A stretch of DNA of 61,316 bases, counting the filler, from Bipalium vagum (taxonomy: Eukaryota): the NCBI GenBank assembly GCA_037834085.1. It is 3 parts of 3 records of this genome, joined end to end, with 100 filler letters (N's around TTAATTAATTAA, not from the genome) between each part and the next. Parts side by side here need not be neighbours in the genome. Positions count along the whole stretch, not along the records: positions 16,391 to 43,032 come from JBBMKC010138378.1; 2 more parts are not named here. One strand, given 5' to 3'. The position numbers and the translations under genes were made by a program. Of the stretch, positions 31,001 to 37,000 are shown one piece after another; the stretch's first letter is position 1, and every line of letters begins with the position of its first letter. The notes beneath the pieces are model-generated. The model searched no databases and had not been told where the DNA came from. It saw only the letters and a list, made by a program, of their open reading frames with translations.

Positions 31001-34000
31001 TAAAAAATTGGTTGAAAAAAAATATTGCCTCTTGAAACATGTTGACAATTATTTTTTTGAGGCTAGGTAGTCCAAAGTAAAAGCCCAATCAATGAGATTA
31101 TGGTAATATAAATAAAATTATTATTATTATTATTATTATTATTATTATTATTATTATTGATCTCTAAAATTGAATAGAAAAAGTTGGTAGTTTAAATTTT
31201 TTAGATATTTTTTTTGATGAGATCAGCTGTAACTTATAAAAATATTCTTTGAAGAACAATTGTTTCATGATAATAAACAATATCTTTTGATCGTATGTTA
31301 ACAAATAAATATTTTATATCAAGGGTTCTTTGATTAGCTGTTTCAAACCATTTTAAAGGCCAACTAATGACGAGCATGGTTTCATTAGAAAGGTTCATAT
31401 TTATTTTGTTTTTAATGAGATCAGTTGACTAGACTGTAATTCTGCAGACAGTTTTTTTTTAATATACTTTTCCTTATATTTAATTACAATAAACAAATTC
31501 CTTAATCAAATCTCTATATAGGTGATACAAATTGAAGTTTGTGTTATGAAGGTGATCAATATTGACGATTACTTCAAATGTTTTTATGAGGATAGCGATG
31601 ATTGAAGGCTTTTGAAGATCATTTTCAACAGATCAATTTGTGATATCTCCCCCATAAATATGAAATATTATTCATAGGATAACTAACACTATCACATTTT
31701 ATTGATCTAGAAATCTAAATGAATAAAATAACATTTTCATGACCTTATAATTGATGTTTAAAATAAAAGCTGAACATTTTCAAATTTTTAAAACATCTTT
31801 ATTTTCAAAAAAATAATCATGAAAAAGTATTTTCGCAAAGAAAGGAAGAAATTCTTTTCCAAATGTCAAAACAATTTATTGAATAAACTTGTTTTAATCA
31901 AATATATTCTCTCATTTTTCAGATAACGTTTTTCAATCCAGGCACTGTTAAGCGGAGATATTTAAGCAAAAATGACATAAACAGAGTTTACATAATATGT
32001 TTAAAAAACCGCATTTTTTATCAAATCTTAAGTGAAAAAATCAAAATAAAAAATATTTATACCAATACAAGTAAGTATATATAATTCCCATTTTCTCAAT
32101 TACCTCTTACAGACAAATTTTTCAGGTGATCAAACTTTATAGACAGCTTGGATTTTGCCATTTTATTGTCCATGAAATTTGTCACATTTTGAAAGGCAAT
32201 TAATATTCTGAAACTACGTTTTTCTCCTGTGAAATCCCATATTTCTGAATATGAATCTATCAAATATGTTCATATCTGGTGAGCAAGGAGATTGCCTTAT
32301 AATTTAATTCCACATGATTCACAGACGTCTTGTCTAATTGAAGCCATATGAAGACGAGCATTGTCATGTATTAGATGCAAACGTTTAGTTGGTCCTATAT
32401 CTAAAAGCATCTGCAGGAATTTAACAGAGTTCAGCATTAATCGACTGATTACTTTCTGAAACATGAAAGCGGAAATCACTACGAAAACTGCAGACAACAA
32501 TTATATGAAATTTATTGCCCGATATCGTTCCCTGATCTTTGTTGGCTGCTCATGATTCGGTACAACCCAATATGCATCATTTTGTTGAAATGATAAGATT
32601 TCACTAGACACCATTTTTTGGTCTACGACCACAGTATGATCTTGCAGATTTCGGAACAACTCTTTTGCTGCATTTACTCTCTGAAATTTGTGATACTCTT
32701 ATTCGATGAGAAGTAACATGGAGTTAACACGTTTATTAACACGGAGGCATTTTAACAACAAATTTTGAGTTATGATTCGATAAACTGAACTATAGTTGAT
32801 GCCAGTGAGAACAGCCATTGCTCTAATGGACAAATTGAAGTCTTTCAAGAAATTGTTTCACATTATTCACATATTTATCGGTCATTTGTTCATTTGGTCT
32901 TCCTCAACCTGAAATTCTTGAAACTCATTGACGCTGATTTATATTGAATTCCTGTGCAATTTCTTGAATTCTTCTTAAACCCCTGATTTCTCGACATCCA
33001 TTCAAGCTCGAGTTGTTGATGAAAAGAATAAGATAAAATAAAACTTTACAAAAACGCGGTTTTTTAAACATTCTATAATTTTAACATCTCTTATGAACTA
33101 AATTTTAACCATTTAAAGAGCTCTTTAGAGTACATTCATTGTTAAATATATCTAAATTCATTGAATTTCTGGGAGCCCATCGAAAATTCTTTCGACAAGA
33201 TTATGAAATCCTTTTCTTCATCTTTTTTTGCAGAAATAATCGTTTACTTTACCTATTTGTTGACAGTAAGATATTGAATACATTTTTGACAAAATTTCAA
33301 GATCTCATGATACATGATTCTCTTAAAGTCAAACTTTACCACTGTGTTGAGATTCATCTCATGTCGACAACAATTTTCCAATATCTTTCTTATCACCACC
33401 TTGTTGTCTCGTTTGTTTAAATGAAATGAATTTTAAAAAAATAATAAATCTTCCTTTTTATTGGGTCTCAACATTTAATTATTGGAAATAAATAATTTCA
33501 TAATTAATTATTCCAATCATGTATTATATATTATTTTTTATATATAATATTATATTTTTCAAAAAAATCTCTCTCAATATATGTAGAAGAGACCAACGGA
33601 AACTTAGATATAAAATAACTAAAATGAAGAATTTTCTTTTTATTTCATTTCGACCAGTCATATATCCTATAAATGTCGAACTAAATTATGTTTTAAATGT
33701 TTCAAATAAAAGTGAACAAATAAAAAATTGAGAATAAATTTAAAAAATATAATATATCACATATTAATAATAAATAGTAATATTAAAAAAATCTCGAAAC
33801 TAACTTGATGATATAGAAGGAGTAAGATGAGTGGTATGTCCATGATGTTTGGAAGAATCCTGAAATGAAAAATAAATAAGTAATTTCAAATAATAATTTG
33901 TTTTTAACATTCTACCAACGAATATAACAAAGACTTTCCCCCAACACCAATTAAGAGAAAAATGTTAATTTTATTTTAAACATACACAAATTCCCAGAGA

Positions 34001-37000
34001 GTTCGTAAAATTATAATTCTGATATTCTGGATAATTAGATAAGCGCAACCGCATATTTGGAGCTGACAATTGACGATCAATATTTGATGAAAGGAAATTG
34101 TTTTTTGACGAAAGAGAAGTAAGCTCAATTTGGATGGTTTTATATGATAATTGATCATCTTCAATAAAAATTTTAGGAGGTTCTCTACAGCTGATAGTTC
34201 GTCGAGCTGGTTTATTATTAGTGAGTAAGGCATTAGTCGTTTCGTCTTCGGAATCTACGGTTTCTTTTATTTGTTTTAAAAAGCTGGAACCATAACATGA
34301 TGAATATACATTGTCTATTTCCATTAGAATTGATTTCAAACTTCCTTCCGAATAATTAAACGTTGAAATATCTCCTTCAAATGATGGTTGACTTAGAGCT
34401 AAATTAGTTTTTAAATCAAAATCTTTTGAGAAATTAACGGCTGCTGAATAGCTTCTTTTGAAATTACTAAGTTTCATCATTTTATTCTCTACTAAATTGC
34501 AGGGTTTATCTTCGAATGAGGTAGGCACAGGTGACACATTGGTCATAGTGGTCTCTTCACTGTATGTTCTTAATCTAGTATCAGTATCATTAGCAATAAT
34601 CTCAAGACTGTTTCCTGATCTCAAAGAAACAAGATTAACATGTTTAGATGACTTCTTTACACAGCAAAACGAATTCGAAAATTTAAAACTACTGAAAAAA
34701 GATTTTCTACGTTTCTTTGGATGAGATTTGACAGACGGACTATTTCTGTTAATGATAAAGTAATATTAATGTTACTTAATCAATTTCAATCAATTACTTA
34801 AATATTTCAACAGAACAAATATTGAAATTATCATTGTAAAATGTCATTCTAAATTCAGTACGTAATGAGTTCGTTTTACTAATAAAAGAAAAATGGGAGT
34901 TTAGTCAAAGCTACAATATGATATAATAAAATCTGGAATAATACAATAAAAGTAATGTTTTTATTTTATTTTAAAATTTTCAATTATATATCACACATCT
35001 CCATTAGCAATAGTATTAAATTAAATTATTGTTTTTTTTACAAAATTAAAAGGTAAACAATATTAAAAAAGTTTCTTTACTCCTTATTGGTGTAATATTA
35101 TACAATCAATCAATATAATCAATAAATATCACTTTCACTTATACAAAAATAATAATTAATAATATTAATATTTAACATTATAATATGATTATCTTTATTA
35201 AAAAATAATTAAAATAAATATGACATAATCCTCACACGTAATATCCAAAACAAAAGTATTACTGGTATAAGACAAATCTTAAATACTCATTTCATAATAA
35301 TAGTGATAAAATTTTATTAACAATAATATTTACAACAGAAAAACAATGAGCAAATCATTTTTGTAGGTTCAATGAAATTTTCCGCCAATTCACAAAATGA
35401 ACTTTAACAAGCCAATTCTGTGCTTTGAGATTCGTTTTTATGGCATCAACTTATTTAGAAAACACAGAAAACAATTTTAGAGCAAATCTTAAGCGCCAAG
35501 GAATAAGATAAACACAAAAAATTATCACATCCTAAACATGCAAAAGATCGATTGATTTTTTATTGACTCAACTTTGGAGACACGTCTTTGAAAAGGTAAC
35601 GAGAACTATTCCAGTGTGGAAGCAATCACACAGAAGCTTAGATACTGTAAACGTATATATATATCAGAAAGCTGAAAATCGTTTAAAATGGAAATCAAAT
35701 GTTATGAACAATCTGAAAGAGCTAGCAAAAATTAACGTGCAACAGTCATAGAAATGCACAACAACGACAACATATTAGTAAGGCAAGCTTTGAACAATTA
35801 TCGGAATCGACAAATACCTTTGATTTACTATCAAAATTTTGAGGACTATTTGGATTTATGTGACTCAGACCTTGTGATATAATGTTATTGCTCACGTTAG
35901 GTGTTGAAGAGGATCTTTCACGACGTTGAGCCAACGGTGAGGTAAAAGACGAGGGACTGGAATTACTAAAATACAAATTATTCATGAACCTATAATACAT
36001 CACTTTTTTTCAAAATTCACTAAAAATAACATTGTTATTGAATGAGAAATCATAACAATTAAATAATCGAAACAAAATCATACAATTTGTTACTGTAGCT
36101 AGCGCTAGATTCACCACTGAAAGTCGTCATAAACACCTCATCATCGCCAACTGCACAACACGACTTTCCAACACAGCGATTATGATATGCTCCCCAACAT
36201 ATTTTACAGGAAACCCCTGTAGAAATCATTAATGGTGAAGAACCACTGGCTGTTAAAGAACTGACCAATAAATACAAATTTATGGCAAATATCACAATAT
36301 TGTTTTTCGAAAAATGTTTTCCTTTGCAACTGATGAAAGTTCTTGAATATTCTTTTTTCTATATACTGAACTGATATGGTTTCACCTGTCAATGCTACAC
36401 GTATAGCATCTGTGTTCCAAGGTATGGACTTCCTGAAATAGAACTGATCTGTTAAACATCTAATTTCTATTTTATTTCACTTTAATTTAAATTAAACAAA
36501 TTGAACTAATGAGACTAATTTAGATTTCTGAACATAGAACAGATTTATTATATCCTTCAAATGTGTCAAAAATTGGTTCCTGGAAATTTTAACAGACATA
36601 TAATCCGCTTAATAGAATAAATTTCATGAAATTTATCCATTATGTTTAAAAATAGAAAAAAGTTCTGGATTTTAAGTTTGTACGACAATCTGGGTCAGAT
36701 ATTATTTTCAGATAATTATTTTAAAAAATTTTGTTAATAATATTTATTCATCAATCAGTAAACTAACCAATAAAAAAACAATTCATTTCAAAATGTAATA
36801 GTCAAGATTCGCAAGAACCGAAGTTTTAATAGATGTCTATAAGTAGTATTAATATAAAATATCATGATGAATGAATGAATTCGTCTAAATCAAAATTGTC
36901 TGTTTAATGTTATATAAAATCTTGTTAATCAAAAGGAAAACCTCACTCTTTATAATTATGGGTGTAAATATAATTAATATTTGATTAAAGTACATTTATA

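Follow-up and report, generated by a model that had tools for sequence, protein, structure and literature searches.

A Raf gene occupies the minus strand of a 61,316-nucleotide stretch of Bipalium vagum DNA (assembly GCA_037834085.1; three parts joined by filler, referred to here as the window, along whose whole length all positions are counted), running from a start ATG at 42347 to a stop at 19009. Based on reading frames, conservation, and isoform pairs from other spiralians, we propose that two neighboring exons of this gene, the canonical CR2 exon (35818-35965) and a downstream exon that we call exon B (33986-34745), are mutually exclusive alternatives, a reading to which we assign a probability of roughly 0.6. 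This would most likely be a novel form of regulated splicing in the Raf hinge, one that exchanges the very exon carrying CR2. What is exchanged would be part of the lock on the enzyme: the CR2 phosphoserine together with 14-3-3 locks Raf closed, and 14-3-3, bound to phosphoserines flanking the kinase, holds the kinase with the C1 domain until Ras brings the complex to the membrane (PMC10387098, in part).

The reading frames carry much of the argument. The canonical model encodes 734 aa and comprises a Ras-binding domain (RBD), C1, the CR2 exon, two linker exons, and the kinase, with all exons on the minus strand. The exons for the end of the RBD and for C1 (36266-36432 and 36084-36216) finish with a phase-2 donor. 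The CR2 exon (49 aa) runs from phase 2 to phase 0 and holds the motif [10 protein letters not shown] at 35922-35893, for which 0 of 2,000 shuffles were as good. Exon B, which adjoins it downstream (760 nt, 253 codons; acceptor ACAG/ at 34745, donor TGT/GTATGT), also runs from phase 2 to phase 0, and both exons join the common linker exon (33805-33859) at its phase-0 acceptor at 33859. Splicing from C1 to exon B yields 938 aa, and splicing through a putative mini-exon (34798-34878, phase 2 to 2) yields 955 or 965 aa with acceptor 34848 or 34878, respectively. When the CR2 exon is joined to exon B, with or without the mini-exon, a premature stop falls at 317-322 aa; when both are skipped, the stop falls at 336 aa. 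That is, these are neighboring exons of equal phase, each in frame alone and unproductive when both are included or both skipped. The original prediction for this DNA had allowed, as a fallback, that the mini-exon might be an internal exon of a 955-aa form, and this (C1, mini-exon, exon B, from ATG 42347) is the better of its two readings, with the amendment that the added exons must replace the CR2 exon rather than supplement it. The frame incompatibility, the stronger acceptor at 34878, and the CR2-like site in exon B described below had not been part of that prediction.

In the mechanism that we posit, the C1 exon would splice to exon B either directly or via the mini-exon, and the frame shift in double-inclusion transcripts would enforce the exclusive choice, these transcripts probably being removed by nonsense-mediated decay, as transcripts with premature stops are. 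The second isoform would keep the RBD and C1 and exchange the segment with the inhibitory 14-3-3 site; it would still be recruited by Ras, with its autoinhibition retuned by a different 14-3-3 site and with different kinases setting that site. Its hinge would be lengthened by 200-230 aa and gain extra basophilic kinase sites, and the basic/Cys patch, now following C1, could add membrane contact or affinity, or undergo palmitoylation. We therefore picture the exon-B isoform as differently regulated and probably still Ras-responsive, rather than Ras-independent.

As judged from its sequence, exon B is a real, conserved alternative coding exon. Given its base composition, the probability of 252 open codons is about 3e-9. 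Among 1.84 billion representatives, a single protein matched it (P0165; E 9e-75, 139 of 213 residues identical, 65%), which comes from a 1,189-nt contig and begins at exon-B residue 41. The likeness stops exactly at the exon-B donor, beyond which both frames read Val (a GTN codon) and then diverge. This boundary bears on a rival in which exon B is an alternative last exon, with C1 spliced to B and read-through of the donor to a stop at about 33973 producing a kinase-less RBD-C1 decoy. An open frame beyond the donor, closed by a stop, is indeed present in the window, P0165, and the Schistosoma open reading frames (ORFs) introduced below; however, all three have Val (GTN) immediately past the junction and lose their likeness there, the donor scores 5.9 (equaled or bettered by 22 of 404 intronic GTs, on a matrix built from only 12 donors and 13 acceptors, all of this Raf gene), and in the Schistosoma models P0014 and P0181 the counterpart of exon B is spliced to the linker exon. 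We consider such a decoy most improbable.

Exon B contains a single RxxSxP, the 14-3-3 consensus, in RQLSAPNM (34075-34052), which lies within an 18-residue block (34037-34090) invariant in P0165. Its Ser stands 27 aa before the end of exon B; the Ser of the CR2 exon stands 30 aa before the end of its own. In both exon B and P0165, this is the site that a Raf CR2 motif profile selects (69 and 57 of 2,000 shuffles, respectively). Exon B has six RxxS/T sites; P0165 covers five, and all five are kept, the first site lying outside it. Nearer the start of exon B is a patch of basic and aromatic residues and paired cysteines (PKKRRK ... SFCC, 34661-34720, with PKKRRK at 34720-34703 and Cys-Cys at 34666-34661), which is the one part of exon B resembling the start of the Schistosoma exon; P0165 is uninformative on this patch and on the mini-exon because it begins at residue 41. 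Cysteines beside basic or hydrophobic residues are a palmitoylation context, and such a context is present here; 11-mers ending at the Cys pair have no strong amphipathic moment (at most 0.45). For the suggestion of a nuclear localization signal, we found nothing beyond the PKKRRK motif, which is absent from the Schistosoma exon.

Pfam recognized no family in either exon B or the Schistosoma exon, and its single match for P0165 was sub-threshold. When metagenomes were scanned with the exon-B alignment, 247 pattern matches came back, of which 0 were confirmed; a CR2 pattern scan returned 0. In the ESM Atlas, exon B had no match at >=0.9 and the Lineus exon described below had no usable match. 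A transposon origin of the intron between the CR2 exon and the common linker exon (35817-33860) was considered and set aside, its sequence having no likeness elsewhere within the window. For RNA pairing that might enforce exclusion, 33 short AT-rich inverted pairs were found, none of them convincing. The first 400 nt of that intron (35800-35400) have 30-34% GC versus 12-24% beyond, and this GC-richer segment could be an untranslated exon, regulatory sequence, or a remnant.

Do other animals exchange this exon? All four same-gene isoform pairs that we compared keep the RBD and C1, with the swapped segment directly after C1 and a shared linker at which the two forms rejoin. In the nemertean Lineus longissimus (X5/X2, P0080/P0089), 60 aa are exchanged for 205 aa, with RSTSAPNV in both; in the brachiopod Lingula anatina (X2/X5, P0035/P0033), 55 aa are exchanged for 39 aa, again with the motif in both; in the bivalve Mya arenaria (X2/X6, P0043/P0040), the segments are 36 and 9 aa, with the motif in one; and in Schistosoma intercalatum (P0125/P0014), they are 113 and 368 aa. 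The first three pairs (NCBI) were drawn from the best 120 of 2,265 matches plus cluster members, which is not a systematic survey. Junction residues Q/H in Mya and N/K in Schistosoma fit a phase-2 split, as inferred from protein rather than DNA. Two CR2 motifs occurred together in 0 of 152 fetched Raf proteins. The nemertean, brachiopod, and bivalve pairs look like mutually exclusive CR2 exons. They resemble the Bipalium Raf in that the swap follows C1 with the RBD and C1 retained and, for Lineus and Lingula, in that both variants carry a CR2 motif, as in the proposed Bipalium pair. They differ in showing little sequence likeness to exon B, and the homology of the spiralian alternative exons is for that reason unestablished. 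Locally, the first 45 aa of the long Lineus exon align with exon B on SAPN[VM]R..L (59 of 5,000 shuffles); this Lineus exon has a tandem Ser/Tyr/Glu/Arg-rich repeat after its motif.

Within flatworms, Schistosoma haematobium-group sequences have a 370-codon exon that follows the CR2 exons and precedes the linker exon (P0164, P0169, and P0181). This exon and exon B resemble each other over their opening 50 aa (12 of 10,000 shuffles, as the best of 672 window pairs, for a region chosen after a BLAST match at E 0.055); the likeness lies in the hydrophobic-Ser-Cys patch rather than in PKKRRK, with the first Cys aligned. An equivalent exon was not found in S. mansoni or S. japonicum. P0014 joins the exon to C1, replacing the CR2 exons, as we propose for Bipalium; P0164 and P0181 go from CR2 to an acceptor inside the exon; and P0169, an old S. 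haematobium model, runs from CR2 through a small Met-initial exon containing Cys-Cys into the equivalent exon. P0169 is an unreliable model because it reads through the exon's donor. In the S. mansoni phosphoproteome table, Raf is listed with S399 and S742, which could not be mapped onto the fetched models (PMC7089424, in part).

That three of these four Schistosoma models contain both exons speaks for another rival, in which exon B is included alongside the CR2 exon through an unrecognized phase-correcting exon or acceptor, or is a decayed remnant. The window offers two short 0-to-2 candidate exons (35644-35607 and 34932-34880) that could correct the phase; however, their donors are weak (2.4 and 2.0), the Schistosoma models with both exons are fragmentary or read through a donor, and, as to decay, the 65% protein identity and the intact frame argue otherwise. 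We regard this rival as very unlikely.

A more serious contender is the main claim of the original prediction, namely that the ATG at 34847 begins an internally initiated, Ras-independent Raf. Its sequence observations hold, including the motifs, exon B, a phase-2 AG acceptor for the mini-exon at 34848, and the predicted lengths of 687 and 955 aa. The ATG (34847-34845) opens [16 protein letters not shown], the donor AA/GTAATT follows 34798, and a 52-nt GT-AG intron (34746-34797; the gene's other short introns are 42-55 nt) leads to exon B. As an alternative first exon would be, the ATG is in frame and spliced to the shared exons, for a total of 687 aa. On this account, an intronic promoter or a spliced leader at 34878 would give a Raf without RBD, C1, or CR2, anchored by its basic/di-Cys N terminus, with its own 14-3-3 site, and independent of Ras; such a form can coexist with the proposed exon exchange.

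How much does the mini-exon itself argue for this? We counted how often its geometry (an in-frame ATG and a phase-2 AG, with a GT lying 40-60 nt ahead of the AG; thresholds chosen post hoc) recurs. If any GT is accepted, 106 of 683 intronic AGs qualify; if the donor must score at least 3, 31 do; and if the donor must be as good as that of the mini-exon, with at least 16 codons, 6 do. Among true acceptors, the geometry occurs at 0 of 8 tested. An ATG-bearing mini-exon with a typical short intron is thus uncommon by chance, which favors an internal start, although it is not extreme; its GC content (17.6%) is intron-like. Above the ATG, the frame stays open for 19 codons and includes a good acceptor in phase 2, which is what an internal exon would require. 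This acceptor, at 34878, scores 5.7 versus 1.5 at 34848, and no other in the listed set has so long a pyrimidine run; its frame matches that of the C1 exon, giving an 81-nt exon in which ATG 34847 is the eleventh codon; because of this stronger in-frame acceptor, the ATG becomes internal. A leader AUG was considered as the start codon itself and rejected, being out of frame at three of three acceptors, with a stop after 0, 5, and 1 codons. At 34878, it is stopped at once, and therefore ATG 34847 would be the next start, a point in favor of internal initiation.

Comparative evidence also falls on both sides. Raf of S. mansoni is listed as trans-spliced, with a spliced-leader-trapping mean of 717, but in a gene-level table that leaves the site unstated (PMC5832876, in part), and internal acceptors and intronic promoters have been described in flatworms (PMC5832876 and PMC12582326, both in part). 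The small exon of P0169 starts exactly with Met and contains Cys-Cys, although that model is, as noted, unreliable. P0129, a 673-aa S. intercalatum model, begins just upstream of the canonical CR2 exon, without RBD and C1; it is among 8 of 144 Raf proteins of at least 450 aa without a C1 match. The motif shared with Schistosoma is, moreover, the membrane-anchor-like one. Against these points, 0 of 4 Schistosoma models with the equivalent exon begin at that exon, and the four isoform pairs all keep RBD and C1. Together with the placement of the ATG inside an 81-nt exon that can be spliced from C1, this leads us to disfavor an internal start as the principal reading, and we hold it to be possible yet doubtful. 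With the same reserve, we speculate that in its fullest version this would be a flatworm Raf initiated by a promoter or leader, whose palmitoylated basic N terminus and own 14-3-3 brake replace RBD and C1, i.e., a MEK kinase that resides at the membrane, acts without Ras, is switched by PKA/PKC-type kinases, and derives from an old spiralian swappable-CR2 system. Two further searches were uninformative: a bacterial sigma-70 promoter scan stood at shuffle level, with a model inapplicable to this animal gene, and contigs of a single sequencing run gave short chance matches with no splice-site joint.

Several observations weigh against mutually exclusive CR2 exons in Bipalium, the reading that we prefer. 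The C1-to-B junction is predicted from genomic sequence, the exon-B acceptor is weak (score 0.0, with 144 of 334 intronic AGs equal or better), and two exons (the mini-exon and exon B) in place of one would be unusual. The CR2 profile match of RQLSAPNM is only modest at the 69 of 2,000 shuffles given above. Mutually exclusive exons often arise by tandem duplication, though this is not required; here, such an origin is unsupported because alignment of exon B with the CR2 exon is no better than chance (2,513 of 5,000 shuffles). The Schistosoma exon, recovered only from sequences of the haematobium group, lacks an RxxSxP (356 of 2,000 shuffles), and its four models join it in three ways (one from C1, two from CR2 at the internal acceptor, and one through the Met exon, the last of which echoes an internal start). 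Finally, the isoforms of the other species are annotation models, and whole-exon likeness between Lineus and exon B is nil (1,752 of 5,000 shuffles).

Two known systems frame the proposal. The closest is vertebrate B-Raf, where alternative splicing likewise acts on the hinge that separates C1 from the kinase, exons 8b and 9b tuning autoinhibition near the S365 14-3-3 site; these exons are extra sequence flanking phospho-sites, whereas in Bipalium the site-bearing exon itself appears to be exchanged. Exons 8b and 9b are described as vertebrate B-raf specific and absent from C. elegans and Drosophila raf, and regulated hinge splicing as an invention of vertebrate B-raf (PMC3008692, in part, for all of these points). 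Our literature search, with subscription journals largely outside its reach, turned up no publication that treats alternative CR2 exons of a spiralian Raf or the isoform pairs above. The second system comprises v-Raf/v-Mil and BRAF V600E with skipping of exons 4-8, in which, as in the putative 687-aa form, the RBD is absent; v-Raf also has a foreign, lipid-modified N terminus resembling the one proposed here. These truncations are viral or tumor lesions, whereas in Bipalium the truncated form is itself putative and a new site of the inhibitory type comes with exon B (PMC9101324 and PMC10926661, both in part). Unlike the oncogenic truncations, the 687-aa form would carry that inhibitory-type site (the conserved RxxSxP, to which binding is predicted), and, if real, it would give oncogenic truncated Raf a counterpart in normal physiology. 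If exon B and the isoform pairs prove to be as they look, four spiralian phyla exchange the exon bearing the Raf lock itself, a natural experiment relating site context and hinge length to Raf activity; swapped exons would explain why Schistosoma Raf models disagree at this intron, and the exon-B isoform would be a testable player in flatworm ERK signaling.

The gene as a whole classifies by sequence as a flatworm-type Raf. It has a kinase domain, an upstream RBD and C1, and both CR2 and C-terminal 14-3-3 motifs. Its first coding exon (42300-42347, opening with ATG 42347) has a frame open to the stop and likeness to trematode Raf N termini; two further N-terminal exons (42254-42153 and 42097-41843) reach the start of the RBD, and the RBD exon (38802-38899) has a single-exon Pfam match of 32 aa (E 8e-4, under the gathering score). 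The C1_1 match (E 0.032) covers the first half of the domain only and is likewise under the gathering score. Beyond the hinge lie the second linker exon (30407-30606), kinase exons at 29261-28894 and 28843-28684, and the last kinase exon and C-terminal exon (19009-19521), with a 14-3-3-type site, RCTSEP, and the stop. Identity to trematode Rafs is 77-81% for kinase exon 1; for the full model, compared with both trematode and cestode Rafs, it is 45-49%. When the kinase domain from the window was placed in a tree with 26 chosen Raf kinase domains, the Bipalium vagum Raf came out as sister to 13 trematode/cestode rows (support 100/100); finer placement within flatworms is not possible because the set has no free-living flatworms or monogeneans.

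Four Mariner/Tc1-like transposase remnants are scattered over the window, two of them within Raf introns: those at 10195-10443 and 54066-54684 have weak HTH_48 and DDE_3 matches, and those at 37492-37722 and 32300-33400 were judged by eye. About 2.8 kb from the Raf start, across an N gap, is a plus-strand GTPase ORF (45175-46413) with a weak MMR_HSR1 match, divergent from Raf and presumably NOA1/YqeH-like. On the minus strand, 2723-4360 forms one long ORF without interruption, plastin/fimbrin-like in its four calponin-homology domains, and on the plus strand, 59251-59556 has a DUF1168 match that we take to be PRKRIP1-like. A last plus-strand ORF (60685-61137), whose double-jelly-roll-like match in Pfam stays under the threshold (E 5e-5), is possibly the remnant of a Polinton-like element.

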